The translations under genes and the position numbers were made by a program. Under the pieces are notes generated by a model. The model was not told where the DNA came from. It did not search any database and saw only the letters and a list, made by a program, of their open reading frames with translations. This document shows positions 38,054 through 62,041 of a stretch of 64,000 bases of DNA, in pieces (the first letter of the stretch is position 1; every line of letters starts with the position of its first letter). Origin of the DNA: an uncultured Desulfosarcina sp. (lineage in GTDB: Bacteria; Desulfobacterota; Desulfobacteria; Desulfobacterales; Desulfosarcinaceae); the NCBI GenBank assembly GCA_963674945.2, contig CAXXWQ010000003.1, positions 2,048,001 through 2,112,000 of the forward strand, written 5' to 3'.

Positions 38054-38172
38054 GGATTTCAGTTCACAGTTCTCGGTTCAAGGTTCTCGGTTCAAAGTTT
38101 ACGGTTCTCAGTTCTCAGTTCTCAGTTCGTGGTTCATCGTTCACCGATCTCCGATCACCTGGTCACTGGTCA
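38045..38172. repeat. Heptamer array overlapping the cobN 3' end and the TBDR2 leader
   Basis: GTTCACA/GTTCTCG/GTTCAAG units grading into GATCACC/GGTCACT units. Confidence 0.85.
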
Positions 38173-41100
38173 CAGGTTTCCGATCGCTCCACTCTTCGAT
38201 CTCGCCTTCCATCTCCAGGTAGGCGTCGCGAAGCTTCTCCTCCATCTCGTCATCGGCGTCCCACATGCCCCGGTTGATGGCCTCGAGGAGTTTGTCGAGG
38301 ATATTTTGCAGGGCAAAGGGGTTGACCTGTTTCATCCACTCCTGCATCTCGGGGTCAAGGGCATAGGCGTTGGCGATCTTTTCGTACATCCAGTCGTCGA
38401 TTACCTCGGCAGTGGCATCCCATCCCAGCACCACGTCCATCATGTGCGAGATGTCACCGGCACCCTTGTAACCGTGACGCTTCATTCCCTCCAGCCATTT
38501 GGGATTGACCAGCCGGCTGCGCAGCACGTGCTTGGCCTCCTCGAAGGTGGTGCGCATCTTGACCCGCTTGGGGTCGGCGCTGTCGCCCATCACGGAAAAG
38601 GGCAGGTGGTCGCGCACGGTCTTGACGGCAACGATCATGCCGCCGTAGTAGTTGTAATAGTCCGTGCACGACATCATGTCGTACTCCCGGGAGTCCTCGT
38701 TTTTCACGGTTACGTCCATGCGCGACAGGTTTTTCCGGTAGGCGTCGGGTTTTTGTTTGCCATAGCTGCCCTGGCCGTAGGCGTGGGAGGAGTAGCGGAT
38801 GTAGTTGTTGCCCAGGTCCTCCTGGGTCTTCCAGTTTTTGGACTCCACCAGTTCTGCCACGCCTGCGCCGTAGGTACCCGGAGGGCAGCCGAAGACCCTG
38901 AAGGTGGCTTCGCGATAGGCCTCCTGTTCATCCATGCCCATCTGTCGGTATTCCTCGAGGTCCTTATACACGTTGCGACGGACGAAATTGGATTCCGGCG
39001 GCTCCGTAAGGGCCGCCACCATCTGGACGGCCTCGTCGATGCGTGCCACCAGGTTGGGAAACGAGTCCCGGAAGAAGCCCGAAATGCGCGGCGTCACATC
39101 CAGGCGGGGGCGTTTCAGTTCGCTTGCCGGGATCACCTCCAGACCGGTCACGTTGCCGCTGCCCTTGGCCCATACCGGGCGAACGCCCATCAGGTAGTAG
39201 ATCTCGGCGATGTCGTCTCCCCGGGTGCGCATGGTGCTGGTGCCGTAGACCAGGATGCCGATATTGTCCGGATACCGTCCCGATTCCTCCAGATAACGCT
39301 CGATGAGTGCGTCGCCCAGTCGAATGCCGACCTTCCAGGCCGCCGGGGTGGGAATTTTATTTGGATCTACACTGTAGAAGTTGCGGCCGGTGGGCAGAAT
39401 GTCGGCCTGGCCCCGGGTGGGCGCGCCTGAGGGACCCGGTGGAACGAAACCGCCGTTGAATCCCGTGAAGCTGTGGTCGATCTCATCCGTGCAGCGTCGG
39501 ATATTGGGTACCAGGGTATCGGCAATATAGGCGAGTACTTCATCTGCATCCGGCGATGGGCTGTCCAGCAGGTCGGCGGTTACCGCTGCCACGCGATCGG
39601 GCCGGTAGTCCGTGGCGGCCAGTCCGTGGGCCAGGGAAAGGGCCTTTTCGTGGGCCTTACGGATGATCTCGGCGCCGCTCAGGCCACCGAAGCGATCCGG
39701 GCGTTTGCCGCGATTTTCCAGCACATCGTCATAATCGAAGCCCATGTCACGGACCATGGCTTCGCGCAAGGAGGGCACGCTGCCGTTGGCAAGGCGGGTG
39801 AGCTGGACCACGAACTCCTCCAGCCGCGCCGCTTCCGGGGCCATCCCCATGACGTGCAGGCCGTCGTTGATCATGGTGTCGGATAGTTCTTCGATGTAGG
39901 CGTGCAATTTTTCCAAAAAGCCGTCGAAATCGCCAAAAGCGGTTTCCCGGCTAAGCTCCAGATCCTTGTCCAGATCGGCGGCTTCCACCGCCTCCCAGAT
40001 CATGGGCCGCAGAATTTCCATTTTTGCCGGATCCTCGGCAACGGCCATCGCATAGTCGGTCACCAGCCCCTGCACCTTGCCCAGATCGTCGTACAGGTCG
40101 GCATTGGTGTAAGCCGGTGTCAGGTGGTCGATGATGCAGGCGTAGCTTCTCCGCTTGGCCTGGGTTCCCTCACCGGGGTCGTTGATGATGTAGGGGTATA
40201 CGTTGGGAAGATCCATGATGGCCAGGTCCGGATAACAGGTCTCGGAGAGTCCCAGGGATTTTCCCGGCAGCCACTCCAGGCTGCCGTGCTTGCCCACATG
40301 AACCACCACGTCGGCCTTGAACACGTCTCTGATCCATCGGTAGTGGGCCAGGTAGTGGTGGGGCGGCGACAGATACATGTCGTGGTAGATCGCATCGATG
40401 TTCTCAAGGTACCCCCGTGGCGGCTGGATCGTCATGAAGACGTTGCCGTTGACGATACCGGCAAAATGCATCTCGTCTTCGTGGACGAACAAATCGCCGG
40501 GAATTTTTCCCCAGTCGGCGGTCATTTTTTCACGAATCGGTACGGGACGGGCGTCGTGCCAGGCGGTGAACCATTTACGGTCGGCATGGGCCTCGGCCCG
40601 TTCGGCCAACTGGTCCGGCGTCAGCCATCGCCGGTCGCAGGTCATCCGGCTGAGCATGTCGTGGGCCAGCTCGTCGCCGTCCGTGTAGGTGCGTTCGATC
40701 CGGTATCCGTCCGCCTGCATCCGGTCCAGCAGGTGCTTGACACTGGAGAAACTGTCCAATCCGGCCGCGCATCCGATGCGATCGTTTCGCGGTGGGTAGT
40801 GATGAAAGACGATGGCCACCTTTCGTTCGGTATTGGTCTTTACCGACAATCGTCCCCAGTTGAGTGCCAGCCGAACCATCTTGTCCACCCGCTCGGTGAT
40901 GGGCATATATTTGGACAAGAGTGCACCGGTGACGGGATCGGTTGTCTCCTGCTCCCGCGTGGCCACCGGCACGGTAATCAGGGCGCCGTCGAACTCGGGC
41001 TGGGCAGCCGAGTAGGAGACGTCCATGGTGTGCATTCCCTGGATACTCTCCTTCCACTGGGCATACGGATCCATGGAAACCATGGCCTGGATGCAGGGCA

Positions 41101-41950
41101 CGTTGAGCCGGGGCAAAAGATCCTTGTATTCCGGGGCGGCCAGTGTGAGAGAAAACATCATCGGGTTGATCAACACCTGGATGCGGGGGCGGTAACCATC
41201 CATGAAGTAGTGCTCGACGATATGATCGGCCCCGCGATTACCGCGATCGGCATCCTTGTACCGATGATGGAAAACAGGAATCACATTGGCACCGTGGGCC
41301 TCTACGGACCGGACGATGGCGTCGATGAAGGCGATATTGTTATTCAGCCAATAGATCTGGTAAAACCACAATCCCACGGTGGGTTTGGTCCGATCGACCT
41401 TTTGGTCCAGATAGTCGGCGAGATCGGGAATCCCGGGCAGGTCCGGATGGTAGATGCCCTCGTGGGGCAGGGTGATTGCCGGCTGGAAGGACTCATTTTC
41501 GTCGAATAGGCGATTGTAGAGATAGACGAGCAATTGAGTGAAATTCACATGACCGCCATGAAGCAGATAGTGGTTCATGTCATCCCAGACGGGTGTGCCG
41601 AAATCCGGGCTATTCGCACGGGCCGCCTCCACCGTATCCTCGTAACCGCCCGTTGGCTGGATGTGCAGGTAGGGTCGTCGGCCTTCGGGCAGGTCGGCCA
41701 GTGCCTCCATCAGCATATCGAAGGCGGGAAAGGATGGTTTTCCGCCGTGAAGGGTGACGACGATGGCATCGGCCTTGATCGCATGATCCACGAAGGCCTG
41801 CTGCCGCGCCTGGTCGAACAACTGAGCCTGGGTGCGGGCATGGACGCGGATGTCGCCACCGGCATCGATGAATTGACGCACGCCTTCGCTTAAGGAGGGA
41901 AGTTCCATGGCCGTGGCCGAATAGTAGCATAGGGTATAAGGTCGCATCAT
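38141..41950 (-). CDS. cobN: Cobaltochelatase subunit CobN (cytoplasmic)
   Basis: QPEFDG, HVGKHGSLEWLPGK, PGEGTQAKRR, LPTGRNFY, RISGFFRDSFP and NPKWLEGMKRHGYKGA motifs. Confidence 0.93.
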   Translation of the reverse strand: MMRPYTLCYYSATAMELPSLSEGVRQFIDAGGDIRVHARTQAQLFDQARQQAFVDHAIKADAIVVTLHGGKPSFPAFDMLMEALADLPEGRRPYLHIQPTGGYEDTVEAARANSPDFGTPVWDDMNHYLLHGGHVNFTQLLVYLYNRLFDENESFQPAITLPHEGIYHPDLPGIPDLADYLDQKVDRTKPTVGLWFYQIYWLNNNIAFIDAIVRSVEAHGANVIPVFHHRYKDADRGNRGADHIVEHYFMDGYRPRIQVLINPMMFSLTLAAPEYKDLLPRLNVPCIQAMVSMDPYAQWKESIQGMHTMDVSYSAAQPEFDGALITVPVATREQETTDPVTGALLSKYMPITERVDKMVRLALNWGRLSVKTNTERKVAIVFHHYPPRNDRIGCAAGLDSFSSVKHLLDRMQADGYRIERTYTDGDELAHDMLSRMTCDRRWLTPDQLAERAEAHADRKWFTAWHDARPVPIREKMTADWGKIPGDLFVHEDEMHFAGIVNGNVFMTIQPPRGYLENIDAIYHDMYLSPPHHYLAHYRWIRDVFKADVVVHVGKHGSLEWLPGKSLGLSETCYPDLAIMDLPNVYPYIINDPGEGTQAKRRSYACIIDHLTPAYTNADLYDDLGKVQGLVTDYAMAVAEDPAKMEILRPMIWEAVEAADLDKDLELSRETAFGDFDGFLEKLHAYIEELSDTMINDGLHVMGMAPEAARLEEFVVQLTRLANGSVPSLREAMVRDMGFDYDDVLENRGKRPDRFGGLSGAEIIRKAHEKALSLAHGLAATDYRPDRVAAVTADLLDSPSPDADEVLAYIADTLVPNIRRCTDEIDHSFTGFNGGFVPPGPSGAPTRGQADILPTGRNFYSVDPNKIPTPAAWKVGIRLGDALIERYLEESGRYPDNIGILVYGTSTMRTRGDDIAEIYYLMGVRPVWAKGSGNVTGLEVIPASELKRPRLDVTPRISGFFRDSFPNLVARIDEAVQMVAALTEPPESNFVRRNVYKDLEEYRQMGMDEQEAYREATFRVFGCPPGTYGAGVAELVESKNWKTQEDLGNNYIRYSSHAYGQGSYGKQKPDAYRKNLSRMDVTVKNEDSREYDMMSCTDYYNYYGGMIVAVKTVRDHLPFSVMGDSADPKRVKMRTTFEEAKHVLRSRLVNPKWLEGMKRHGYKGAGDISHMMDVVLGWDATAEVIDDWMYEKIANAYALDPEMQEWMKQVNPFALQNILDKLLEAINRGMWDADDEMEEKLRDAYLEMEGEIEEWSDRKPVTSDQVIGDR

Positions 41951-41956: not shown

Positions 41957-43342
41957 TTACACAGCCTCCAAAGTGCAGGTTTTCGAAGTCTTGTTCCCGT
42001 CGATTGCGGGAAAGCGCTTTTCGATGAGATCCAGCAAGTGGGTGACATCATCGCATCTTGACATATTCTCCTGATCATCTTCCGGCAACAGACACGAACC
42101 ATTGTCTTTCCGAATGGTGAAGACCGGCTTCCCCCCGTGGATGGCCGCTTGCAGCAGCACCATGTTGCCCATGTTCATTTGATGGATGGGAAATCCACAG
42201 TCGATCACCATGTCGCATTTATCGATTCGGCTTTGGGCCTGGCCCAAAAGGTCCCCAGTGATGCATTCCAGGGCCTCTTGTGTCAGGCAGCTGGCACCGA
42301 GGGAGCGGGCCACGAAGTAGTCCAAGTCGTTGGTGTGGAGCACCCCGGTTGCGATGGCAAACCCACGCTTGGCCAACATGCGGTACACCAGGGCACCGCT
42401 GCCCATGCCGGCCACCACGAATGCCCGGCCCCGATTGCCACTGCCGCGCAGTTCGATGCTGCCCAGTTGATGATCGAAATCGGCGCCGTCGAAGTCATAG
42501 AGGGCCGCCACGGCGTGGTTTTTCAATACGGATTCGGGGGGGCCCCAGGCCGTTACTTTTCCCGACTTGATCAGGGCCACCTGATCGGCCACTTTGGCCG
42601 CCACGTCCACGTCGTGCAGGGACGCCACGACGGTGATGCCCTCGCTGCGGCACAGGTTGCGCAAAATTCCCATCACCTCCACCCGGTGTTTGAGATCCAG
42701 GTGCAAGGTGGGTTCATCCAGCAAAAGAAGTCGCGGTTGCTGGGCCAATGCCCGGGCCACCAGGGCTTTCTGGCGTTCACCATCGGAAAGGTCGCTGAAG
42801 ATTCGCGTCACCAGATTGTCGGCATGGACGGCGGAAAGTGCGTGGAGAACCACCTGTTTGTCCGCTTCGCTCAACCGCCCGAGAAAATCGGTGTGGGGGT
42901 AGCGGCCCAGGGCAACGAATTCATACACCGTGAAAAGTGGCGGCGAGATTTTTTCGGTGAGCACGACGGCCATGAATTTCGCAAGATCAAGGGAGTTCAT
43001 TGTTGACAGGGGGCTTCCCCGAAGCGTTATGCCGCCCCACAATGGCGCCAGGTGACCGGACAGGGTACGAAGCAACGTTGTCTTTCCGGCGCCGTTGGGG
43101 CCCAGCAGGGCGATGAACTGCCCGGCTGTGAATTCCAGGTTCAGGCCGCTTAAAACGACCTTGTCCTTGTAGCCGACGCTCAGGTCGCGGCAGGATAGGA
43201 TCGGTGATGCGTGATGGGTGATGGGTGATGGGTGATCAGTGAACGGTGACAGGTTATTTGAAGAATCATGATGTCTTATTTTTTTTGGTATCATGTTTGA
43301 AGACTCCATATTTTGCGTTATCGTAAACAACTTACTCATCAC
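41957..43342 (-). CDS. FepC/BtuD-like ABC ATPase with C-terminal extension (start uncertain)
   Basis: GPNGAGKTT, LSDGERQ and LDEPTLHLD motifs plus an extra domain GSGALVYR..ATGVLHTND. Confidence 0.88.
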   Translation of the reverse strand: MMSKLFTITQNMESSNMIPKKIRHHDSSNNLSPFTDHPSPITHHASPILSCRDLSVGYKDKVVLSGLNLEFTAGQFIALLGPNGAGKTTLLRTLSGHLAPLWGGITLRGSPLSTMNSLDLAKFMAVVLTEKISPPLFTVYEFVALGRYPHTDFLGRLSEADKQVVLHALSAVHADNLVTRIFSDLSDGERQKALVARALAQQPRLLLLDEPTLHLDLKHRVEVMGILRNLCRSEGITVVASLHDVDVAAKVADQVALIKSGKVTAWGPPESVLKNHAVAALYDFDGADFDHQLGSIELRGSGNRGRAFVVAGMGSGALVYRMLAKRGFAIATGVLHTNDLDYFVARSLGASCLTQEALECITGDLLGQAQSRIDKCDMVIDCGFPIHQMNMGNMVLLQAAIHGGKPVFTIRKDNGSCLLPEDDQENMSRCDDVTHLLDLIEKRFPAIDGNKTSKTCTLEAV

Positions 43343-43372: not shown

Positions 43373-44422
43373 TTACATCTTCACCCGACGCTTGAGCAAA
43401 AGCCCGATCACCACCGGCGCGCCGAAAAAAGCGGTGATGGCCGAAAGTGGCAATTCCACGGGCGAGAGCAGCATACGGGCGATCAGATCACACAGACTGA
43501 CGACCAGGGAGCCCAACAGGCAGGCGCCGGGAATCAGAATGCGGTTGTCCGACGTCTGGAAAATCAAACGCGCCATGTGAGGAACGGCCAGTCCCACGAA
43601 GGCCACCGGACCGGCCATGGCGGTGATCATACCGGCCAGGGCGCAGGCACAGAGCAAAATCAATACACGGAAACGGCGGATATTGACCCCCATGGAGGCG
43701 GCATAGGTCTCACCGAGAAGAAATGCGTTGAGCGGCTTACTTAAAAAATAGACAAAGGCAAGGATCAGGCCGCCGACGAGCACCAGCACACCGATTTCGC
43801 TCCATTTGAAGCCGGAAAAGCTGCCCAGCTGCCATAAAACAAAGCCCTTGATCTTCTCTTTTTCCGCCAGGGCCGTGAGGACGCTGGTTATCGCGTGGCA
43901 CAAATACCCCATCATCAGTCCCACGATCAGCAAGGTGATGCCGTTTTTCACCTTCGATGCCACGGCAATGACGATCACCATTACCCCATAGGCGCCGATG
44001 AAGGCGGCGAGGGTGGTCATAAATGGCGAGAGCACCGTCATGCCCACCGTGAGGGTGGTGAGCATGACGACGGAGACCATCACCGTGGCGCCATGGGAGA
44101 TGCCCAGAATAAAGGGACCAACGATGGGATTGCGGAAATAGACCTGCAAGAGAAGTCCCGAGGTGGCCAAAAAGGCTCCGCTAAAAATGGCGGCAATGGC
44201 CCGGGGAATACGAATTTTCCATACGATGGATCCGGCGGTGGCGTCGATATGGGGATGGACGATTGCCTGCCATACTTCAGCTGGAGAAAAAAAGACCGAT
44301 CCGATACCGATGTTGAGGAGCATCAGGACGAGGGTCAATGTTCCTATAAGGGCAAAGACGACCGATGGTCTGCGTAAAAAGATGAAATTGAACGTGGGAA
44401 CGGTTTGCCGGGCAGTGCTCAT
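43373..44422 (-). CDS. FecCD/BtuC-family ABC permease
   Basis: IRIPRA, FRNPIVGPFILG and FVGLAVPHMAR motifs. Confidence 0.9.
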   Translation of the reverse strand: MSTARQTVPTFNFIFLRRPSVVFALIGTLTLVLMLLNIGIGSVFFSPAEVWQAIVHPHIDATAGSIVWKIRIPRAIAAIFSGAFLATSGLLLQVYFRNPIVGPFILGISHGATVMVSVVMLTTLTVGMTVLSPFMTTLAAFIGAYGVMVIVIAVASKVKNGITLLIVGLMMGYLCHAITSVLTALAEKEKIKGFVLWQLGSFSGFKWSEIGVLVLVGGLILAFVYFLSKPLNAFLLGETYAASMGVNIRRFRVLILLCACALAGMITAMAGPVAFVGLAVPHMARLIFQTSDNRILIPGACLLGSLVVSLCDLIARMLLSPVELPLSAITAFFGAPVVIGLLLKRRVKM

Positions 44423-45543
44423 GAATGTTCTCCATTTTCCACTGGATCTGTGTCGGGCAGTTCAATGAAATATCGGCGCTTGAAATCGGGATAGACCTCG
44501 GGGTGAAGAATCGCTGCGATTTCGGTGAGAATCTCGTCCAGATGATCGCCGGATTGGACGTAGTGGGGCAATGGCGAATAAACCTTTCCCGACCTGATGG
44601 GCCGGATATCGGAAAGCAACGGGTTCAGGCGTGCCAGTGCCGCCTTGGAGGTCACGCCGTTCTCTTTGGTACGGTAGGTGAAATAAATATCGGCATCCTG
44701 GCCGCTGTAGAGAAAACGTTCCACGGCGATTTCGATACAGGATGTGCCGTAGACATCGTCGAAGAGGTAATCGCTTTCGGCAAGGCCGACCAGTTCTCCC
44801 ACCCAGGCGTTGCCCGGTTCCACCAACACCCGCTTTTCATAGATATCGCCCCACATCACCTTGGGGGGCGGTCCGGCGCCCGCCGTCCGTTCCCGGATGT
44901 CGATCAGGGCCTGGTTCACCCGGTTGAAAAAGGCATCGGCTTCCTTCTCCCGTTGGAAGAAAGGTGCAAGGAACTGGACGAATCGCATGCGCGCGTTGAG
45001 ACACATGGCCGTCGGTGTGGAAGTGATGGCACATGGGATCGAAAGCTCGTCAAGCATGGGGATGACGGCATGATCCCAGGTGAGCACTATCTCCGGTTTC
45101 TGCTGCTGTAGTCGTTCGAAATCAATGCTGCTGGCGTCCCCCAGAAAGGCGATTTTTCCGGATGCCATGCCTTGTTTCACCTCTTCGATGTACCATTTGT
45201 TCTCCGGTGCCGTGACCCCCACCAGTACATCCTCGAGGACACCCAGTGCGCGCAGGGTGGCCACATCGAAATAGCCGTAAGCGACGATTCGTTTCACAGG
45301 CGTTCTTACCAGTCGCGAAGGCGTCACATCCACGGGCGCCGAAACATCCCGTGGAACCAGAACAAGTGTTCTTCCTGCGCCGTCGCGCACCTCGGTTCGC
45401 TGGGGAGAAATGCGGTTGACGGTGAATTCGCCAACTTGAATGAACGACCCCATCTTTTCACTACTTTTGGAGGTGCAGGCGCAAATGAGCACGGTAGTCA
45501 AGAAAATCACGATGTGTAGCATTATTTTGGATTGTTGATGCAT
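44419..45543 (-). CDS. Periplasmic binding lipoprotein (BtuF/FepB-like)
   Basis: Lipobox-like LICAC; RTPVKRIV, IDFERL...KPE and AAILHPE motifs. Confidence 0.85.
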   Translation of the reverse strand: MHQQSKIMLHIVIFLTTVLICACTSKSSEKMGSFIQVGEFTVNRISPQRTEVRDGAGRTLVLVPRDVSAPVDVTPSRLVRTPVKRIVAYGYFDVATLRALGVLEDVLVGVTAPENKWYIEEVKQGMASGKIAFLGDASSIDFERLQQQKPEIVLTWDHAVIPMLDELSIPCAITSTPTAMCLNARMRFVQFLAPFFQREKEADAFFNRVNQALIDIRERTAGAGPPPKVMWGDIYEKRVLVEPGNAWVGELVGLAESDYLFDDVYGTSCIEIAVERFLYSGQDADIYFTYRTKENGVTSKAALARLNPLLSDIRPIRSGKVYSPLPHYVQSGDHLDEILTEIAAILHPEVYPDFKRRYFIELPDTDPVENGEHS

Positions 45544-45570: not shown

Positions 45571-46464
45571 TCATGGTTCACGGTTCACAGTTCGAGGTTC
45601 ATAATTTACAGGTTGAAGTTCATTGTTTACCGTGTCAATGTATAATGAAATCTTACGATTATCCGGTTTTCGATAAATCGCCCATTCGGTCAGGTACATG
45701 ACCAGACCGATGGTAAACAAAAGCAGCCCGGCCAGATAGAGTCCCACCCCCGGGTCCTTGCGGACGATCAGGTCGACGCGCTCCCGGCGATTCATGCCGC
45801 CCTCTTTCATTTTCGGCTCGAAATCCTTGAGAAAGATCCCATATCCCTTGCACCGCAGCGGTCGCATACACCCCAAAACGACGGATCTTCGATGCTCGCC
45901 ATCTGATATCAACAACTTCGCCCGGGGTCGCAATACCCGCTTTTCGAATGCGGGCAGGCGGTCTGTTTGGTAGTATACAGAATCCAATTGGATGAGTGTT
46001 ATCCTGGTGTTCGTGCCGGGAAGTGCAAAAGGGACGCCGGGAATCAACGTTCGGGTGTCGAGCACCTGTGCGAAGAGATAGCTGCACAGGTAGCCGACCA
46101 AGATGACGATCATGGCGTAATGCATGATGTGGGGGGCAAATTTGAAGATCAGCCGCCGGCGGCTAAAGTTCGCCCGTTTGGCCATGAGAGAAACAACACG
46201 ATCCGTGGTGCAAATGAAAGTGTTGATGCAAAGCAGGGCCAAAAGGATCAACAATATGAAAAACCATAAGGTGTGGGCCAGGTTGCTTACACCATAGGTT
46301 TTAATCCATGGTCCAAGACCGATGTCGTTCAATGGGGAAAAAAGGAAAGTGCGGCGATTCAGGCAGATGTACCCAACGGTCAAATCGGCTGTGAGCAACA
46401 GGCAAAGTACCACCGTAAGATGGATGCTGCCGAGTTTATGCCATACAAACGAGAAAAATTTCAT
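45571..46464 (-). CDS. ResB/CcsB-like (System II cytochrome c biogenesis) membrane protein
   Basis: KLGSIHL, WF..LL.LL.IN..ICT, PHIMH..MIVILVGY and C-terminal RKDPG plus TM helix. Confidence 0.7.
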   Translation of the reverse strand: MKFFSFVWHKLGSIHLTVVLCLLLTADLTVGYICLNRRTFLFSPLNDIGLGPWIKTYGVSNLAHTLWFFILLILLALLCINTFICTTDRVVSLMAKRANFSRRRLIFKFAPHIMHYAMIVILVGYLCSYLFAQVLDTRTLIPGVPFALPGTNTRITLIQLDSVYYQTDRLPAFEKRVLRPRAKLLISDGEHRRSVVLGCMRPLRCKGYGIFLKDFEPKMKEGGMNRRERVDLIVRKDPGVGLYLAGLLLFTIGLVMYLTEWAIYRKPDNRKISLYIDTVNNELQPVNYEPRTVNREP

Positions 46465-46474
46465 GATTTTCAAT

Positions 46475-47320
46475 TTACAGTGGCCAACGCAACGGCCCCA
46501 GCTCCGGAACACAGTTCAACCCCAGGACCACAAGCGCACCGGCGGCGGCATACAGGCTTCGCGCGCGGGTGGACCAGGTCCCGGTCAGATGAAGGTGAAG
46601 CAGACAAATATAAAAAAACCACGTGGCCATTGTCGTGGTAATGGCCGGGTCATCCCAAACCACCGGTGTCCCCCATCCCAGGTAGGACCACAACTCTCCG
46701 GCGAACATGGAAAGCGTTAAAAAGGCAAAGCCCCAGATGGCCCAGTGCATGGTGCGAGAAGAGGGGGAGGAGGCGTTCGATGGACGATGGACGAGGGATG
46801 AGGGACGATTCGTGGGCCGTCGGTTTCGTCCCTCATCCCTCGTCTTTCTTCCTTCGTTTTCGCTTTTCTCTATCAATCCTGCCATGGCCCAGGCGGCGGA
46901 AAAAAGAAAACACCCCCTGCCTGCCACGCCAAACCGGAAGAAAAGATGAGCCCAGACGGTTTGTGATTTGATGAACGGAATGTAGTAGTTCTTGGGGAAC
47001 AGCACTCCAGCAAGGGCAATGACGACAATCCACGTCAAGATGATACGCAGCGGACACGAACCATTTTTACATGGATACCCGATCGCGAAGGCCACTGTCC
47101 CCATGAAAACTGGCAGTGCCTGGACACCCGCGTACATGGGCAGCATGGGCCAGGCGATCCAATATCGCCCGATTAGGGCAGTTGCGTTGGCCAAGAGGGC
47201 GAAAACGAGAAAAAAGAGAAGCGTCCGCGGACGCCGGGAAAACCAGATGGCGGACACAAGGCTCAGTATATAGAGTCCTGTGGCGATTTTGAAAAGCTGC
47301 TGTGTGTCGGTCAAGGTCAT
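46475..47320 (-). CDS. CcsA/ResC-like WWD-domain membrane protein
   Basis: WAHL, GELWSYLGWGTPVVWDDP (WWD-like) and WFFY..LLH motifs. Start 47320 lies after the riboswitch terminator. Confidence 0.8.
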   Translation of the reverse strand: MTLTDTQQLFKIATGLYILSLVSAIWFSRRPRTLLFFLVFALLANATALIGRYWIAWPMLPMYAGVQALPVFMGTVAFAIGYPCKNGSCPLRIILTWIVVIALAGVLFPKNYYIPFIKSQTVWAHLFFRFGVAGRGCFLFSAAWAMAGLIEKSENEGRKTRDEGRNRRPTNRPSSLVHRPSNASSPSSRTMHWAIWGFAFLTLSMFAGELWSYLGWGTPVVWDDPAITTTMATWFFYICLLHLHLTGTWSTRARSLYAAAGALVVLGLNCVPELGPLRWPL

Positions 47321-47341
47321 CGCTCTTTTCCCATTTTTCTC

Positions 47342-47366
47342 AAAAAAAAGCCCCTGACAGGGGCTT
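47342..47366 (-). terminator. Terminator of riboswitch 3 expression platform
   Basis: Minus strand AAGCCCCTGTCAGGGGCTTTTTTTT. Confidence 0.75.
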
Positions 47367-47524
47367 GGCAGCATCACGATGGTGGGAAGTGGGCAAGGCA
47401 GTCGTTTGCGCTACCATGACCGGTTCATCGAGTGCGACCGAATCCTCGTCAGTCTCACCTAAGTTGAGCGATTCAGCACTTTGAGAAAATTTGAAACGCT
47501 CAGTTTAGGTCTCATTCACTCCTC

Positions 47525-47725
47525 ATGCATTCGGCAGGTCTTCTGGCTTCGCCGCTTCCTTGGACAGCCTTCCCATCCCAAGATCATCGGGACAGTGGCA
47601 ATGTTGCCCTGGAAAAACTCCTCTTCATTTATGAAAAGGCGGCGTTACAGCGTCGGGTACGCTCCCGATTCTCACGGGATTCCCTATTATCACCAAGTAT
47701 TACAGGTCTTGGCGGCCGAGCGCAT
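47525..47725 (-). ncRNA. Cobalamin riboswitch 3 (variant, paralog of riboswitch 2)
   Basis: ATAGGGAATCCCGTGAGAATCGGGAGCGTACCCGACGCTGTAACGCCG...GCCACTG...GGGAAGG...AAGCCAGAAGACCTGCC. Confidence 0.9.
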
Positions 47726-47760
47726 TGGGGGATATTTTGTTATTTTGCTCCTTGTTTTTT

Positions 47761-47849: not shown

Positions 47850-49211
47850 TTACTGATTACCGATGTTTCCCACTGTTGCTTGGGATAACATCGCCAATTG
47901 CTTAAGGGCCGTATTGGCAGCCTCACGCTGGCGTTGATGGCAGGCCGCCTCGGTAAAAGCTTTTTTACTGGTTGTGAGATCATTCATCTGCCAGGCGGCA
48001 TATCCGGCCATGAGCCAGGCCCTGCCGACGTGACGGCCTTTTTTTCGGGCGGCTTTTTCATAGGCGTCGACCGCCTGGCCGTATTGTTTCAGGCTGTAAT
48101 ACAGCTCTCCCTTGAGCAGCATGATGTCAGCATCGTCAGCTTCCGGCTCCATTTCATCAATTGCCGCAAGGGCCGTCTCGGGCTTGCCCAGTTGCCGATA
48201 GGCCATGGCCAGTTGCTCCAGGATCTGCTTGTCGTGATTTTCCCGAAGACAGTTTTCATACAGGGGTGCGGCTTTTACGGGGACGTTGAGCTGCAGATTG
48301 AGATCGGCCAGGAGTCTTTTCTCATCCAATGAAAGTGGGGTGATAAATGCATAGATGGTCATTGCCATCAATGCGTCCTCATACCGTTCGGCGTTCAACT
48401 GGATGTGGGTCAGTGCTTTCCACCATTTGGCAAAAGTGGGGGTTTGCCGGGTCAACGTATGCGCCAGATCCAGGGCCTTGTCCTGCATGTTCAACTGCAT
48501 GTATTGCTGAAGCAGTATCTCCTGCCATTGGATCTGTTTGTCACCCGTGTAGGCCTGTGCGAGTTCCTGGACGAAGGGCAGGGCACGCCGGGGTTGGTCC
48601 GCTGCGAGCAAGGCATGGACCATGTGCTCCTTCCATTCCAATTTGACGGCATCCGGATGAAGGGCAAACAAATTTTCGAAGATGTCGATGGCCCTGAGAT
48701 TGTCTTCTGCCATCAGATAGGCGGCCGCGCTGTAGTAGAGATACTCCGGATTTTTCTCCGTCGATGTTTCATACCCTTTTCCGAAACATCGACCGGCTTC
48801 GGTAAAGTGATCCAATTCATAGTGCGCTTTGGCTAGGTTCAGCCAGGCATAGCTGTGGGTGTTATCACGCTTGACGGCGTTTTCATACGCCGCTATGGCC
48901 GGTTCGTGCTGCTCTTGGAGAAGGTAGCAGTTGCCCATGCAAAAATAGATCTCCGCGTGTTGGTATCCCTTGGGGTCGGCCTTGCCGGGATCCAGGGAGG
49001 AGCCGCTACGGGCCGAAAACGCCTGAAGCGTATCGATGGCCTTTTGATACTCCCTGTTTTGCATCATGGGACCGACCTTGGCGAGAACCACCTGTACGGG
49101 CAGGGGAAGGCTCTTGCTAGTAAAGCTTTTCCCCGCGAACCCATTTGTCGGGGTAAGAAACAATATCAGCATAAAGCCGATCAGCAGCCTATAAATTCGA
49201 ATTGTTGCCAT
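47850..49211 (-). CDS. Exported TPR-repeat protein of the TonB cluster (TtpD-like)
   Basis: Signal peptide; multiple TPR units such as IYFCMGNCY...AIAAYENAV. Confidence 0.85.
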   Translation of the reverse strand: MATIRIYRLLIGFMLILFLTPTNGFAGKSFTSKSLPLPVQVVLAKVGPMMQNREYQKAIDTLQAFSARSGSSLDPGKADPKGYQHAEIYFCMGNCYLLQEQHEPAIAAYENAVKRDNTHSYAWLNLAKAHYELDHFTEAGRCFGKGYETSTEKNPEYLYYSAAAYLMAEDNLRAIDIFENLFALHPDAVKLEWKEHMVHALLAADQPRRALPFVQELAQAYTGDKQIQWQEILLQQYMQLNMQDKALDLAHTLTRQTPTFAKWWKALTHIQLNAERYEDALMAMTIYAFITPLSLDEKRLLADLNLQLNVPVKAAPLYENCLRENHDKQILEQLAMAYRQLGKPETALAAIDEMEPEADDADIMLLKGELYYSLKQYGQAVDAYEKAARKKGRHVGRAWLMAGYAAWQMNDLTTSKKAFTEAACHQRQREAANTALKQLAMLSQATVGNIGNQ

Positions 49212-49213
49212 GG

Positions 49214-49918
49214 CTACTCCAATTCAAAACGAATTACGGTTTCCACCTGGGTCTTGACCGGGGTGCCGCCGACGGTTCCGGGTTTAAAGCGCCAGGCGCG
49301 AACACACCGATCGACGCTCCTGTCGAACAGGTTCTCCGGATCGGCTTCCAGGATGGAAACATTTCCCACTTCGCCGTTTTCGTCCACGATAAAAGAGACT
49401 TTGACCCATCCTTCGATGCCGCGACGGCGGGCCTGAATGGGGTACACCGGTGGAATGCGCGTCAGGGTCGTCAGGGGGCCGTCCAAATCTCCCATGGAAA
49501 ACGCGCCTTGCAATGCCGTCATGTCTACCATGGGGGCGCTTTCCAGCGGTGGCAGCACCAGGCTGTTGGGACCTGTCGGAAGGCGCGGATTGACCTTGAA
49601 GGGCAGTGTCAGCTTCTTTTGCAGTGGTTGATTCGGTGCCGCCTTGGGCCGGTGGACCGGTTTCTTCTCTGGCGGTTTCGGCGGCTTGGGCGGCTTTCGC
49701 CGAACATCCGAATCCGGCCGCTTCATGCGAATGACATTCACCTGGGGAACGAGGGTCTCCACGATGGGTCGGGAGGGTTCCTGATCCACGAGTCGGGGCA
49801 TCACCCAGAACAACGCCAGGTTCAACGTGGCGGCCACCAGCGCCGACCACAGCCAGGTGGTCCAGGTGCGCCGGGACAAAGCGTTGAAGTAATTGTCGGG
49901 TGTCGATGATGACGTCAT
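49214..49918 (-). CDS. tonB: Energy transducer TonB
   Basis: N-terminal TM, KPPKPPKPP linker, PVYP.QARRRGIEGWV and W.FKP motifs. Start set at MTSSST. Confidence 0.88.
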   Translation of the reverse strand: MTSSSTPDNYFNALSRRTWTTWLWSALVAATLNLALFWVMPRLVDQEPSRPIVETLVPQVNVIRMKRPDSDVRRKPPKPPKPPEKKPVHRPKAAPNQPLQKKLTLPFKVNPRLPTGPNSLVLPPLESAPMVDMTALQGAFSMGDLDGPLTTLTRIPPVYPIQARRRGIEGWVKVSFIVDENGEVGNVSILEADPENLFDRSVDRCVRAWRFKPGTVGGTPVKTQVETVIRFELE

Positions 49919-49928
49919 TGTTTTCTCA

Positions 49929-50345
49929 TCATTCCTGTGGCACGCTGGCCGCCAGGGAGACGTTGTTCGCACCTGCCATGCGGCAACCATCCATTACCTG
50001 GATGGCCGTGCCGGTACTGCTGGCCTTGTCGGCCACCACCACCACGGCGCCTTCCGGGTTCTCGGCCAGGGCGCGTTCCACGTTGGCCCGAACGGCCCTG
50101 GGGTCGATCTCCCGGTGGTCCATGAAGATCCGGTCATTCCCATCGATGGCGATGAGGATCGTAGCCTTGTTTTGCACCACCGCCGTCGATGCCGTGGGTC
50201 GACTCACATCGATGCCGGTCTCCTTTACGAAACTGGTGTTGACCAGAAAGAAAATCAGCAGGATGAAGACCATGTCGATAAGCGGGGCGATATTGAGTTC
50301 CGTTGTCCCGCGATTCTTTCGTCGCGCAGCGGATATATTTAACAT
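49929..50345 (-). CDS. exbD: Biopolymer transport protein ExbD
   Basis: NIAPLIDMVFILLIFFLV and VVADK motifs. Confidence 0.92.
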   Translation of the reverse strand: MLNISAARRKNRGTTELNIAPLIDMVFILLIFFLVNTSFVKETGIDVSRPTASTAVVQNKATILIAIDGNDRIFMDHREIDPRAVRANVERALAENPEGAVVVVADKASSTGTAIQVMDGCRMAGANNVSLAASVPQE

Positions 50346-50346
50346 G

Positions 50347-50418
50347 GTTCTCCGTTCTCCGTTCTTGGTTTTCGGTTCTCCGTTTTGAACTGTGAACTGT
50401 GAACCGAGAACCGTGAAC
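50347..50418. repeat. Inverted pair of heptamer arrays between exbB and exbD
   Basis: GTTCTCC-GTTCTCC-GTTCTTG... followed by GAACTGT-GAACTGT-GAACCGA-GAACCGT. Confidence 0.85.
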
Positions 50419-50423
50419 TTTTA

Positions 50424-51035
50424 TTAAATCTGTCTTCTCAAATAATACCCCGCCCTGGCTACCCGCTGCATAAGGTTTCGTGCGCGCCGATCCAAAAACC
50501 CCTTCATGTACAGGCCGGGAATGGCAACCAAGAGGCCGGTCTGGGTGGTGATCAGGGCTTCGCTGATGCCACCGGCCATGCCTTTGGCGTTTCCCGTGCC
50601 GAATACGGACAGGATGTCGAAGGTGCCGATCATGCCCGTGACCGTACCCAGAAGGCCCAGCAGCGGGGCAACGGCGGCCAGTACGCCGATCACGGCCAGA
50701 TGGTCGGAGAGTGAACGGTTGATGGTTAATACGGTCTCGTCCAGGATGAATCGATTCAGTTTTGGATCGCTGCTTCGCCGCTGGAGAAAACGGGCCACCA
50801 GCAAAGAGACGACGCCGCGATATTGATCCGGGTCCGGCAGCCGGTTGTCCCGAACGTGGGACAGGGCCTCTTTCAAAGGCATGTTTTTGCGATGCAGCCG
50901 CCTGAAAAACAAGGCGCGTTCCACGATCAGCAGCCACATGGCAAGGCTCACCAGCACCAGCGGCACCATGGCCACGCCGCCGGCGGCAATATACGCCTCG
51001 AGGCGCAAGTAGGATGAGGACATCAGGTCGATCAC
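50424..51035 (-). CDS. exbB: MotA/TolQ/ExbB proton channel protein
   Basis: APLLGLLGTVTGMI and GISEALITTQTGL motifs. Confidence 0.9.
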   Translation of the reverse strand: MIDLMSSSYLRLEAYIAAGGVAMVPLVLVSLAMWLLIVERALFFRRLHRKNMPLKEALSHVRDNRLPDPDQYRGVVSLLVARFLQRRSSDPKLNRFILDETVLTINRSLSDHLAVIGVLAAVAPLLGLLGTVTGMIGTFDILSVFGTGNAKGMAGGISEALITTQTGLLVAIPGLYMKGFLDRRARNLMQRVARAGYYLRRQI

Positions 51036-52480
51036 GACGCCTCCCGGGACTTGTGAATGATGTTGACCAGGGCTACGGCCTTTTCCTCCATGTCTCCGAT
51101 CTTCTTGTCCACGGCACGGCTTAAGAGGGTCTGGGAGAGCATCAGCGGAATGGCCACGGAAAGACCCAGCATGGTGGTGACCAGTGCTTCGCTGATGCCT
51201 CCGGACATCAATCTTGGATCACCGGTGCCGTGCAGGGTGATCACGTGAAAGGTGTCGATCATGCCGGTGACCGTTCCCAAGAGGCCCAACAAGGGCGCGA
51301 TGGCGGCAAGCATCCCCAGGGTGGACAGAAACCGTTCCATGGGCGGAATTTCTCTTAGTATGGCCTCTTGCAAGGCGTTTTCCATCTCTTCGCGCTGCAT
51401 GTGGAAACATCGCAATCCGGCATCGACCACACGTGCCACCGGTTTTGTCGGATAACAGCGGCACGCTTCTTGGCACGCGTCCCAGTCGTTATCGGCGCAA
51501 AGACCTTCGATTTTTCGCATAAGGCTGTCGCTGTCCAGTTTTTTTCGTACCAGAAAGAAAACTCGTTCCAGAACGATCAGGATGCCGACGGCGAAAATTC
51601 CGAGAATGGGCCAGACGATGGGGCCTCCGTGGGGAATCTGCTCCCAAAGTTTTAACTCATGTGTCAGCTGGCGCAGTGCCCCACCCCGGGATATGTCCAT
51701 GGGAACGACATCCGTCTGACCTTCCATGTACCGGGCCAATTGTTTTTGCATCCGATTTGATGGTAGCCGGGAGAGGGCATAGAGTTTTTTTCCGCTCGTG
51801 GAATAATTGCAAAACCCCAATTCCCGGGAACTGCGATAGACAACCGTAAACGGTCCGACGAGAAGAAGATCGGCGTTCACTTCACGCCCGGTACGATCGA
51901 CCATGGGGCCATTTTGAATTTGTACCTGTCCGGTGATATCGATCTGAGCCAACAGGCCCTGGGCAAGATTCCGGACATCGTCCATGCCGGGGAAACGGGT
52001 GTTCTGAGCAATCGATTCCGAAAAATCGACGGAAGTCGCTGAAATTGCGGTCTGTGGGTTCTGAGAGATCAAGGCGTCCACATCTTTCGCATTGACCCGG
52101 ATGGCCCCCACCAGTTCGTCGATCATGCGGTCGGTCTGCTGGAGTGTTTCGGTGAGTTGCTTTTCGTGTTCCTCCAACTTCCGGCGCTCTTCGGCCAGTT
52201 GGTCTGCCTCTTTCTTCAACCGGTCGTTGGCCGTTTCAAGGTCGGCAATGGCACGTTCCAACGTTTCTCTGGCCTGTATGATCCGGGAGCGACTCTCGGC
52301 CGCGGCTTCTTCGGCGGCCTTTTGTTCTTCGGCGGCCTTTTGGATCAACGCTTCTTTTTCTTTTTGTGCCTGCATCTGAACCGCTCGCATGTCGTTGGAC
52401 CATGCGGGCAAAACTGCTCCCATGTGAAACAACAGCAAAGGCATCAACAGTAAAAAAAGGCATTTCGGTGAAAATTTCAT
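51032..52480 (-). CDS. TtpC-like long ExbB-family protein
   Basis: Signal peptide, long coiled coil, C-terminal APLLGLLGTVTGMI...GISEALVTT. Start set at MKFSPK. Confidence 0.85.
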   Translation of the reverse strand: MKFSPKCLFLLLMPLLLFHMGAVLPAWSNDMRAVQMQAQKEKEALIQKAAEEQKAAEEAAAESRSRIIQARETLERAIADLETANDRLKKEADQLAEERRKLEEHEKQLTETLQQTDRMIDELVGAIRVNAKDVDALISQNPQTAISATSVDFSESIAQNTRFPGMDDVRNLAQGLLAQIDITGQVQIQNGPMVDRTGREVNADLLLVGPFTVVYRSSRELGFCNYSTSGKKLYALSRLPSNRMQKQLARYMEGQTDVVPMDISRGGALRQLTHELKLWEQIPHGGPIVWPILGIFAVGILIVLERVFFLVRKKLDSDSLMRKIEGLCADNDWDACQEACRCYPTKPVARVVDAGLRCFHMQREEMENALQEAILREIPPMERFLSTLGMLAAIAPLLGLLGTVTGMIDTFHVITLHGTGDPRLMSGGISEALVTTMLGLSVAIPLMLSQTLLSRAVDKKIGDMEEKAVALVNIIHKSREAS

Positions 52481-53250
52481 GGAATCACCAGCTTTCCGAC
52501 GGGCAGGTCGAGCAGTTCTACCGGTTTTCGCTTGGCTGCCATTTCGATGGCAGAATGGATCGGTTGGTTGTGTTTCTGAGACAGAAGTTGCCACTCATTT
52601 TCTGCAACGTTGAAAAGGCCACACTTCTTTTGATCGAGGGACTGGAAGAATAGGTTGATTCGTCCAAGCCGAAAAATATCGACAAGTAGGGGCTGGCCGT
52701 CAATTTCGATGGTTTCCTGGTAGGTTTCGATGGTAAAACCGTACTCGGCTTCCACCAACAGCGCCTCCATGGCTTTTCGATACTTCTCGCTGATAGGGAC
52801 TTCGGGATCATCCGCCAGGCGGGTCAAATTTTCGACGCGCCGCTCTCTTTCTTTCATCAGAAAAGGAGGGCCTTCGATAATCAGGGCCTCGAGGCGATCG
52901 ATCAGTTCATGGACAAAGGGGCCGATCTGGTCGGAGATCTGTTCGATGTCCGCCAGTTGTTTCTCCTTGGTGGCGATGCGGGACCGGGTCGCGGCCACTT
53001 GCTCTTTGAGTTCATCGGTCTGTTGGGTGAGCCGTTTCTTTTCAGCTTCAAGCTCTTCATACCGGGCCATCAACTTCTCCTGGTCCAACCGCCATTGAAA
53101 TTCGGCCTCTTGGGTGGCCTGGCGGGTGTCGATGGCTTTTTGTACCGGCTTTTCGATGCGCCGTCGGGTTTCGCTGCCCGTAGCGGGAAGTACGGAAAAA
53201 CATAAAAGGAAAATGAGTATAGGAGAAAACCTGGACTTTTTTCTGTGCAT
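52477..53250 (-). CDS. DUF3450-family (TtpB-like) protein
   Basis: Signal peptide, coiled coil, PFL..ER..R, EKYRK..EA..VEAEYG and RLGRI motifs. Confidence 0.8.
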   Translation of the reverse strand: MHRKKSRFSPILIFLLCFSVLPATGSETRRRIEKPVQKAIDTRQATQEAEFQWRLDQEKLMARYEELEAEKKRLTQQTDELKEQVAATRSRIATKEKQLADIEQISDQIGPFVHELIDRLEALIIEGPPFLMKERERRVENLTRLADDPEVPISEKYRKAMEALLVEAEYGFTIETYQETIEIDGQPLLVDIFRLGRINLFFQSLDQKKCGLFNVAENEWQLLSQKHNQPIHSAIEMAAKRKPVELLDLPVGKLVIP

Positions 53251-53342
53251 GAACCGATCTCCTGTGAAGCGAGTATATATGAGAACCAAAATCCCGACAC
53301 AATTAGGGCGTTTGGGGAAAAGATACTCCTTGTCGAAAATAG

Positions 53343-53370
53343 AAAACCCGGACCGTCAAACGATCCGGGA
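53343..53370 (-). terminator. Terminator of riboswitch 4 expression platform
   Basis: Minus strand CCCGGATCGT-TTG-ACGGTCCGGG-TTTT. Confidence 0.65.
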
Positions 53371-53437
53371 TATCCCTTTTTTACCCACAGATAGAGTACT
53401 GCAAACGATGCCGTCCACGCAATCGTTTCTTTTTTCA

Positions 53438-53592
53438 TTCAGGCAGGTCTTCTGACTTTCGGATCATCCTGCACGTTGCGCCTTCCCAACCCGTTGGCCA
53501 GTGGCAAATGCAACGTTCGTCCCCGATCACAGCGGCGGGCCCATCCCCGATTTCCACGGGGTTCCCTATTCAGCTCAAAATGAGCACCTGAA
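53438..53592 (-). ncRNA. Cobalamin riboswitch 4
   Basis: TTCAGGTGCTCA...ATAGGGAACCCCGTGGAAATCGGGGATGGGCCCGCCGCTGTGA...GCCACTGG...GGGAAGG...AAGTCAGAAGACCTGCCTGAA. Confidence 0.93.
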
Positions 53593-53617
53593 CTTTCGCA
53601 GATTGAAATTTTTGCCA

Positions 53618-53645: not shown

Positions 53646-53834
53646 GTAAAAATAATCTCGATGATTACCAACGGCGCAGCCGGTGTCCGTTTCCTATATT
53701 CATCACCTTTTCGCTGCATTTTATCGTTTCCATCCGAGGTGTTGTGAGGAATTGAAAATCGATTTGTTATGATTTTTGACTCGAAAAAAAAACTTGACAA
53801 AAATCTTGTTACGGTATTTTCTTGCGCAAAATAT

Positions 53835-54029
53835 TCTGGGTGCTTCCAAGATTGCCTGACCGTTGAGGCGAAGATATTTTTGGAGCGAAAATAGGGAACT
53901 CCGTGGAAATCGGAGACGGGCCCGCCGCTGTAAACGGGGACGAAAGCCGCATAACCACCACTGACGAGCAGCACTCGTCGGGAAGGTGTGGCCGGTAGGT
54001 TGATCCGTAAGTCAGAAGACCTGCCCAGA
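53835..54029 (+). ncRNA. Cobalamin riboswitch 5
   Basis: TCTGGGTGC...ATAGGGAACTCCGTGGAAATCGGAGACGGGCCCGCCGCTGTAA...ACCACTG...GGGAAGG...AAGTCAGAAGACCTGCCCAGA. Confidence 0.93.
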
Positions 54030-54099
54030 GGAAAACGAGATCTGAACGCACGGATGGTTGTGCTCGACTCGACATAGATCACTGTGGAGAAAAAGGGAC

Positions 54100-54145
54100 A
54101 TCCCTGGATCGTAAAGAAATAGACGGTTCAGGGATTTTGCTTTTT
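54100..54145 (+). terminator. Terminator of riboswitch 5 expression platform
   Basis: ATCCCTGGATCGT-N10-ACGGTTCAGGGAT-TTTGCTTTTT. Confidence 0.65.
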
Positions 54146-54160
54146 GGGGGAGAGAGAGGA

Positions 54161-57546: not shown

Positions 57547-57634
57547 AACGAAATGCGGTTTCGCGAAAGCGGTACCAGTTTTCTCTTGACCGCCAATAAA
57601 AAATTCTCTATCCAGATAAAGTTTTACGTCAATT

Positions 57635-57879: not shown

Positions 57880-57942
57880 TGAAGTACGTCTCCTTCGTGG
57901 ACGGAAGGTGAGTATACAAAGATTTTGAGGATAATAAGGGAT

Positions 57943-57983
57943 ATCCCCGGATCGAGCGAAAGATCGGTCCGGGGATTTTTTTT
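57943..57983 (+). terminator. Terminator of riboswitch 6 expression platform
   Basis: ATCCCCGGATCGA...TCGGTCCGGGGAT-TTTTTT. Confidence 0.8.
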
Positions 57984-58050
57984 GTGGATACGACAAAAAC
58001 CCGAAAAAAGATGTTCTTCGAGTACATTGACTATGATCTCTTGCTCACAA

Positions 58051-62037: not shown

Positions 62038-62041
62038 AATT

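Follow-up and report, generated by a model that had tools for sequence, protein, structure and literature searches.

The window, a stretch of 64,000 nucleotides (nt) from an uncultured Desulfosarcina sp. (contig CAXXWQ010000003.1, positions 2,048,001 to 2,112,000), contains an adjacent CcsA/ResB-type gene pair, here named ccsA* and resB*, in an operon led by a cobalamin riboswitch. The ccsA* gene (46475–47320, minus strand) encodes a CcsA/WWD-family membrane protein of 281 amino acids (aa), which matched PF01578 with 53.5 bits (cut-off 29.9). The resB* gene (45571–46464, minus strand) encodes a short ResB/CcsB protein of 297 aa, of which the N-terminal part only matched PF05140 (32 bits, cut-off 24.6). 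The pair is an extra paralogue beside a canonical pair in the same genome and is a variant of this heme-handling family, likely with a new job. Our preferred reading, held tentatively at somewhat below an even chance, is that ccsA*-resB* would be a CcmF-like, stable heme-b membrane reductase acting on the next-encoded binding protein, BtuF*, and releasing from it a Co(III) ring bound by a thiolate or selenolate.

All four histidines of CcsBA, named TM-His (transmembrane) and P-His, are required for synthase function (PMC11322641), and the WWD residues W828, W833, K842, and E843 are required for heme attachment (PMC6299221). TM-His1 and TM-His2 corresponded to H242 of ccsA* and H115 of resB*, respectively, and each was present in 80/80 loci kept from a genome scan of 93 relatives. 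In resB*, H112 was found in 79/80 loci and C85 in 80/80; C85 was rejected as a special residue because canonical ResB carries it too. P-His1 corresponded to H125 in 72/80 loci, and His was found at 125 or 127 in 79/80; this assignment was made by hhalign to the host's own canonical CcsA, the column being shifted in the MAFFT alignment used for the tree. The P-His2 site was occupied by Gly (G275) in 79/80 loci, the other one being truncated. When the tree rows were compared, this column held Gly in 61/61 rows of the ccsA* clade versus His in 56/58 CcsA-like, 7/7 CcmC, and 8/8 CcmF rows, and a His anywhere past residue 266 was found in only 12/79 ccsA* proteins, at scattered positions. The ccsA* protein kept W211, W216, W222, and W234 (W211 and W216 in 79/80 loci each), and its WWD motif carried a one-residue insertion. 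The equivalents of K842 and E843 were A226 and I227; Lys or Arg at the former position was found in 0/61 clade rows and Glu at the latter in 0/61, versus 51/58 and 45/58 of the CcsA-like rows, respectively. The periplasmic His-to-DPG span of resB* was 122 aa, versus 238 aa in the canonical paralogue. Judged by its residues, the pair falls outside the CcsBA synthases, because the equivalents of P-His2, K842, and E843, all required, were lost. The motifs named in the initial annotation of this DNA, GELWSYLGWGTPVVWDDP, WAH (H125), and LLH (H242) in ccsA* and PHIMH (H112/H115) in resB*, were all found, and the divergent WWD motif it described stood with two refinements, the inserted residue and the missing fourth histidine.

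In the most divergent ccsA* members, only the equivalents of P58, G208, W234, H242, and G275 were invariant; across the broader row set, all 61/61 clade and 28/28 sister-clade rows carried both W234 and H242. The L157 subclade had lost W211, W216, and W222 but kept W234 and H242 together with the partner His and an unbroken run of TonB-dependent receptor, ccsA*-resB*, btuF*CD, and cobN, which argues that conservation of the pair centres on the membrane heme site and not on the outer ring platform. A long-branch subclade without the WWD tryptophans but with the transmembrane histidines was represented by L157:609-1337 and L153:3702-4415 (P0172, P0173, P0182, P0183, and P0200). A riboswitch-like match lay upstream of ccsA* in L153.

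In a FastTree phylogeny of 162 rows (SH-like support, midpoint root, long branches), 20 ccsA* rows were placed on one side of a branch with a support of 100, within a 61-row clade (98) that was joined to a 28-row sister clade (100). Both clades branched apart from the CcsA/HemX-like, CcmC, and CcmF rows, the CcmF rows forming a clade of their own, in keeping with the repurposed pair supposed in the initial annotation. A separate canonical system, the presence of which that annotation had left to be checked, was found in the host genome as a resB-ccsA pair (G000:C1:68707-70982) with the motifs WGSYWSWDPKE and GLHSY; it scored 288.1 bits against TIGR03144, and ccsA* scored 50.3 bits, below the cut-off of 187.6. 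The host genome also contained a hemA-adjacent CcsA-like gene and 26 mechanically called open reading frames (ORFs) with at least two CxxCH motifs. A second, higher-scoring PF01578 match was present in 29/30 carrier genomes, these being PF01578 proteins with a putative synthase role.

The AlphaFold2 (AF2) model of ccsA* (pLDDT 85.9) was matched by VIA to CcsBA (7S9Y) with a Z of 19.7 (root-mean-square deviation 3.5, 254 aligned) and to CcmF (6ZMQ) with a Z of 19.5, which is a tie. Foldseek gave E values of only 7e-3 to 7e-2 with this model, and the fold call therefore rests on VIA. A PDB sequence search with the ccsA* profile returned 0 matches at E<=1, and the ESM Atlas returned generic names only.

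The cobalamin riboswitch aptamer (47516–47735, minus strand) matched Rfam RF00174 with 89.6 bits (gathering score 31.5, E 7.8e-21). An intrinsic-terminator-like hairpin with a T-run, likely the expression platform, was located at 47348–47366 on the same strand, 28 nt 5′ of the ccsA* ATG at 47320, so both elements reported upstream of the pair were recovered. Terminator-like sites numbered 2 in the scan versus 0.9±1.0 in shuffles; the weight of this one lies in its position, not in rarity. In the related loci, riboswitch-like matches were scored by a profile built from the six window elements and were found within 900 nt upstream in 31/71 loci and, at any upstream distance on that strand, in 44/48 well-flanked loci. 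Rfam backed 15/16 loci picked for such a match, plus 3/7 further loci, and the four Rfam negatives among the latter were profile negatives too. The placement of the pair first under a riboswitch holds in this window and was found in only 31/71 related loci, most others having it inside a longer riboswitch-led operon.

The 80 kept loci were mostly from Desulfobacterota and also from Rhodospirillaceae, Rhodocyclaceae, and Contendobacter. Counted over loci with enough flank, the gene after ccsA* was resB* in 79/80, followed in operon order by btuF* (72/74), a permease (69/71), and an ATPase (67/69), and cobN or chlD was nearby in 59/63; together with the upstream riboswitch-like matches, these counts show a conserved linkage to corrinoid genes, which the initial annotation had left to be tested. 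When an even draw of 401 genomes of the phylum was searched, ccsA* scored in 21, one hit being a sister-clade gene, and two divergent copies upstream of btuF* brought the number to 22. The btuF* gene was likewise found in 22/401 genomes, and 21 of 22 were shared each way. The ccsA*/btuF* exception G314 apparently has the operon deleted (genome 85% complete). CbiD was present in 21/22 carriers versus 153/379 non-carriers, kin among them not being independent, and of 20 carriers tested CbiK was found in 19 and CobN in all 20. The module therefore appears to belong to cells already making B12 anaerobically, which points to supply of cobalt or of a ring rather than to auxotroph feeding. CobN as a replacement for CbiK was ruled out for the phylum by CbiK in 19/20 carriers; in ten other carriers, CbiK was over the cut-off in only two, one weakly. 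The proteobacterial carriers G401–G409 had CbiD in 8/9 and no strong CbiK match, and several had three to five CobN-family matches. Two copies were apparently decayed (L064:10004-14295 and L160:5236-6018), with a truncated ccsA* joined across deletions to cobN/chlD or to the end of btuC.

The gene after resB*, btuF* (44419–45543, minus strand; PF01497), encodes a binding protein of the BtuF fold, in which Cys23 is of the lipoprotein type. Its model (AF2 pLDDT 92) showed a cluster-A binding fold, and Foldseek matched it to B12, heme, and siderophore binders with E values of about 1e-12. In a 67-row alignment, from which 8 of 75 ORFs were dropped for short coverage, TGA-split genes among them, the lipoprotein-type Cys was present in 63/67 rows, C181 in 60/67, and C269 in 67/67; for C181, the alignment count was preferred to a loose-pattern count in Cys-type rows (54/76). 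The codons of C269 (TGT in the window) and C181 lie at 44737–44739 and 45001–45003, respectively. C269 was aligned to W196 of E. coli BtuF, a cobinamide contact (PMC5269720). Of the BtuF aromatic contacts Y50, W66, W85, F162, F168, and W196, W85 was kept, W66 was not, and W196 was replaced by Cys or TGA in this 19%-identity alignment. A precedent for Cys ligation is BtuM, which binds the corrin cobalt through Cys80 (PMC6072759).

When the C269 site was compared in 86 domains, it was Cys in 76, an in-frame TGA in nine (eight distinct), and unscorable in one, with no other residue among the 85 scored. Cys and TGA alternated with at least four changes on the tree. Alternation of Cys and selenocysteine (Sec) is a mark of a reactive or metal-binding residue. 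A hairpin about 12–17 nt past the UGA had a mean of about −8.5 kcal/mol versus −4.0±2.3 kcal/mol at Cys sites in a 24-nt positional test, and GU was present in 9/9 hairpin loops of the TGA-type genes. The TGA-carrier genomes tested had selA in 5/5 and selB over the cut-off in 4/5, and C181 was absent from 8/9 TGA-type proteins. These features indicate that selenocysteine likely occupies the C269 position in TGA-type relatives. Such genes with a hairpin resembling a selenocysteine insertion sequence (SECIS) were found at L012:3050, L029:2618, L032:2672, L039:12425 (=L148), L149:3130, L155:5276, and L156:1837, and also in L048, and they appear truncated under the standard code. A catalogued selenoprotein, 'Cobalamin-binding protein BtuF' (cd01144), has a CxxU motif (PMC13188914), and the accessible part of the Sao preprint (10.1101/2022.07.06.499078) describes other binding-protein families. 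The CxxU motif was not found in btuF*, as none of the eight sites examined had a Cys at the third residue ahead of the TGA, and GxS/T/A-U in btuF* is likely an uncatalogued selenoprotein motif.

The neighbourhoods of the sister clade were compared at twelve loci (L132–L143; e.g., L133:3564-10307). The sister CcsA had a His near P-His1 in only 3/28 rows and, at the K/E positions, Arg in 23/28 and His in 28/28. In eight of the twelve loci, resB is followed by an intact gene for a secreted protein of the sulfite-oxidase/MsrP fold, three of these proteins being fused to a tetrapyrrole-methylase domain, and CxxCH was present in 6/8 of these partners and in 106/120 homologues. In L138, the sister pair was intact and the partner lacked CxxCH. 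A TonB receptor, exbBD, and tonB usually came after the partner, and several loci had genes for aldehyde oxidoreductases or tungstate-type binding proteins nearby. An APC permease was present in 5/12 sister operons, and most had no ABC importer beside the pair. A cobalamin riboswitch was found in 0/12 sister loci, one of which had a molybdenum cofactor (Moco) riboswitch. Both clades head TonB uptake operons in which a periplasmic partner is encoded next, with different metals. The sister operons also encode secreted tetrapyrrole-methylase folds.

In CcmF, a stable transmembrane heme has been proposed to reduce the heme delivered by periplasmic holo-CcmE (PMC10663686). The invariant transmembrane bis-His site and W234, the loss of the WWD tryptophans in L157, and the presence of an ABC importer in the operon together favour reading ccsA*-resB* as a stable heme-b conduit for electrons rather than as a channel. 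In the proposed mechanism, during B12 or cobalt shortage, the TonB receptor would carry a Co(III) tetrapyrrole, such as a base-off corrinoid or a ring remnant, into the periplasm, where the cleft Cys or Sec of BtuF* would grip the cobalt. The loaded BtuF* would dock on the WWD face, at which the absent P-His2 would leave space for the sulfur or selenium ligand opposite P-His1. The membrane heme would then supply an electron that reduces Co(III) to Co(II) and loosens the Co–S or Co–Se bond. The ring would be imported by BtuCD and reworked by CobN-ChlDI/CbiZ, and its cobalt or the ring itself would feed the cell's own anaerobic B12 pathway. Starting from features seen directly (anatomy, residue pattern, synteny, the separate clade, Cys/TGA alternation, and co-occurrence with CbiD, CbiK, and CobN), we infer heme binding, docking, electron transfer, the identity of the substrate, and the direction. 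The secreted sulfite-oxidase/MsrP-fold protein of the sister pair is the kind of partner that is served by a membrane electron donor.

Several observations weigh against this reductase. Of the CcmF relay tryptophans W216 and W253, only W253 has an equivalent (W234, 80/80), which is also present in 58/58 canonical CcsA rows. The W216 position was Phe in 44/61 clade rows; an aromatic residue one turn higher, at position 201, was found in 36/61 clade, 27/28 sister, and 7/58 CcsA-like rows, and it is Leu in the window ccsA*. BtuF* was equally distant from heme, siderophore, and B12 binders, its cargo being set by context only, and the alignment with BtuF was modest (probability 81.6, 19% identity). 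Import by BtuF-BtuCD of the E. coli type works without a reductase. A 48-nt folding control gave no separation of TGA and Cys sites, only the 24-nt positional test doing so. The CbiD enrichment was partly kinship, as carriers cluster in high-CbiD families, and no riboswitch was found within 10 kb upstream in 4/48 well-flanked loci. G213 has a riboswitch-btuF*(TGA)-btuC-btuD arrangement without ccsA*-resB*, and in L067 ccsA*-resB* is followed by btuC with no adjacent btuF*; the link between the pair and btuF* is not obligatory, with one exception each way. A broader generalization, which we hold more loosely than the reductase itself, is that ccsA*-resB* and the sister pair may form a fourth WWD lineage that makes no cytochromes and consists of inner-membrane b-heme reductases unloading metal cofactors from dedicated periplasmic carriers, the cobalt version working on a Cys/Sec BtuF-fold lipoprotein and a tungsten/molybdenum-linked version feeding a sulfite-oxidase-fold protein.

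The initial annotation had proposed a pair repurposed for tetrapyrrole translocation. The repurposing was supported by a corrinoid-linked clade apart from canonical CcsBA, whereas the conserved residue core tends to favour a role other than translocation. As a translocase, the pair would form a His-lined channel that moves a metallo-tetrapyrrole across the inner membrane, either inward from BtuF* to CobN-ChlDI, where the ATP-driven chelatase would trap it, or outward to BtuF*. Heme passes between the TM-His and WWD sites of CcsBA (PMC10663686), both transmembrane histidines and P-His1 were kept, Phe stands at the position of CcmF W216, to which blocking of the channel is attributed, and most sister operons offer no ABC importer next to the pair. 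However, almost every ccsA* locus has an ABC importer after the pair (permease 69/71), an APC permease is encoded in 5/12 sister operons, and the WWD tryptophans are dispensable in L157. Export of a cobalt ring would be futile in B12 shortage, and amidated corrins would be polar for an inner-leaflet bis-His site. We regard translocation as less likely than the reductase, but as the likeliest of its rivals.

A dedicated single-cysteine lyase is improbable; the pair would then export heme and attach it by one thioether to C269 of BtuF* and, for the sister pair, to its partner's CxxCH. CcsBA has two Cys pockets (PMC10663686), of which C2 (LxPxL loop, W828, and W833) was largely kept, but C1 (K842 and E843) was lost, and heme attachment depends on each of P-His2, K842, and E843. 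The invariance of C269 as Cys or TGA and the CxxCH of the sister partners (106/120) would suit such a lyase, as would an in-frame resB*-btuF* fusion of 675 aa (L074:3591-5615). This fusion was seen in 1/79 loci, may be genuine or an artefact of assembly, is unfused in the close relative L076, and is weak evidence. The sister pair also lacks P-His1 (His near the site in 3/28), L138 keeps its pair beside a partner without CxxCH, G213 has BtuF* without the pair, and a covalently filled cleft would be unable to pass cargo to BtuCD.

A role in thiol or selenol maintenance seems no better placed than the lyase; here the membrane heme would keep the C269 or Sec of BtuF*, and the C181–C269 pair, reduced for metal binding, with no reduction of cobalt. 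The distribution of C181 (60/67 in Cys-type rows, absent from 8/9 TGA-type proteins) is as expected of a helper or resolving Cys, and the conserved transmembrane heme core is also consistent with this role. However, CcdA/DsbD is the usual route of periplasmic thiol reduction, and the host genome has a gene that, by its motifs, is putatively CcdA-like. That the pair is an ordinary second System II cytochrome c synthase is very improbable: it is a PF01578/ResB pair with the CcsBA fold, but it has lost P-His2, K842, and E843, scores 50 bits against TIGR03144 (cut-off 187.6; own canonical copy 288), forms a separate clade, and has no CxxCH client in the window.

The genes downstream of ccsA*-resB* were separated by short gaps or overlapped, and all were located on the minus strand. 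After btuF*, they encode a btuC-like FecCD permease (43373–44422; PF01032, 272 bits), a btuD-like ABC ATPase (41957–43342; PF00005), for which the top NCBIfam match was a corrinoid ABC ATPase below its cut-off, and the cobaltochelatase large subunit CobN1 (38141–41950; TIGR02257, 971.6 bits, cut-off 822). A TonB-dependent receptor (36290–38053; PF07715), a chlD-like chelatase subunit (34087–36210; TIGR02442, 796.9 bits, cut-off 779.45), a chlI-like chelatase ATPase (33050–34090; Pfam/NCBIfam), an ABC-2 exporter pair of ATPase and permease (31168–33032; Pfam/NCBIfam), and a cbiZ-like amidohydrolase (29835–31001; PF01955, 205 bits) follow. Pfam and NCBIfam thus agreed with the co-oriented run listed in the initial annotation. 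Its two absences also held within the ORFs covered: no CxxCH, and hence no apocytochrome of that type, was found in any window ORF of at least 70 aa, and no CcdA or thioredoxin family matched among the 30 window ORFs scanned, a subset of all ORFs. CcmE and CcmH were likewise absent from the window ORFs scanned.

Upstream of the pair lies a riboswitch-led DUF3450-exbB-exbB-exbD-tonB-TPR unit (47850–53606, minus strand; Rfam/Pfam), which in several relatives continues directly into ccsA* without an inner riboswitch. The six cobalamin riboswitches of the window cluster with a NicO/DUF1007 pair and three TonB receptors within about 40 kb (23308–63863) and form an island for cobalt and corrinoid acquisition. 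A second riboswitch-led unit (53826–63863, plus strand) consists of a TonB-dependent receptor, a 446-aa protein without a Pfam family, a riboswitch, cobN2, DUF2162, and MotA/ExbB. This unit presumably resembles the BtuS/HmuSTU operons, partly described in PMC12583661. A radical-SAM gene (25377–26381, minus strand) has homologues repeatedly beside cobN or ccsA*-resB* (15 loci in one cluster). Just beyond the window, a cbiZ-like gene and cbiK are located at G000:C3:2112098 and G000:C3:2116151, respectively.

No description of a B12-linked CcsA/ResB was found in literature searches, in which coverage of subscription journals was poor and regulon databases were outside the scope, and the accessible text of PMC545781, on deltaproteobacterial B12 regulons, makes no mention of one. 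The same source reports several deltaproteobacteria without known cobalt transporters. The operon names candidate parts for cobalt acquisition in sulfate reducers and other anaerobes, and some of the loci come from cultured organisms (Desulfosarcina variabilis, Desulfobulbus elongatus, and Desulfogranum japonicum). If the broader reading of a fourth lineage of reductases is true, anaerobic B12 producers would have a hitherto undescribed route for recovering cobalt from spent corrinoids. A lineage without the synthase residues in trace-metal uptake operons also offers a natural experiment on the role of the transmembrane heme site, which is still debated for CcsBA and CcmF, and btuF* is likely a selenoprotein family whose genes look truncated when annotated in the standard code.

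The described members of the WWD family, CcsBA, CcmC, and CcmF, all serve cytochrome c assembly in the accessible literature. When compared with CcsBA/ResB-ResC (H. hepaticus 7S9Y/7S9Z; TIGR03144), the pair shared adjacent PF01578 and ResB genes, the fold, TM-His1, TM-His2, P-His1, and the equivalents of W828, W833, W839, and D840. It differed in lacking P-His2, K842, and E843, in Val at the W837 position, in the one-residue WWD insertion, in the resB* periplasmic region of about half length, in the gene order ccsA then resB, and in its B12 riboswitch and BtuF*CD/CobN context. CcmF (System I, 6ZMQ) was alike in the WWD core fold, the bis-His transmembrane site, a likely periplasmic carrier partner, and the W253 equivalent. 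In contrast, the second transmembrane His comes from ResB*, the ccsA* chain of 281 aa lacks the C-terminal half of CcmF, itself a single chain of about 650 aa, P-His2 is absent, Phe is found at the W216 position, and CcmE and CcmH are missing from the scanned window ORFs.

The BtuF* module shares with BtuF-BtuCD the cluster-A fold, the FecCD permease, and the W85 equivalent, whereas W196 is replaced by Cys or likely Sec, a lipoprotein-type Cys is present, the identity is about 19%, and no NCBIfam model scored above its cut-off. The Cys at the corrin-contact position is reminiscent of Cys80, the axial cobalt ligand of BtuM. The catalogued BtuF selenoprotein, compared by description, is similar in its binding-protein fold and in Cys/UGA at the likely ligand site, but btuF* has a GxS/T/A-U motif without an upstream Cys, is exported, and is tied to ccsA*-resB*. 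The HmuS/BtuS operons of CobN-like dechelatases also combine a TonB receptor with a CobN homologue and recover metal from a tetrapyrrole (PMC12583661); cobN1, however, scores as a true CobN and accompanies ChlD/ChlI, and the HmuS/BtuS-like unit is a separate locus of the window.

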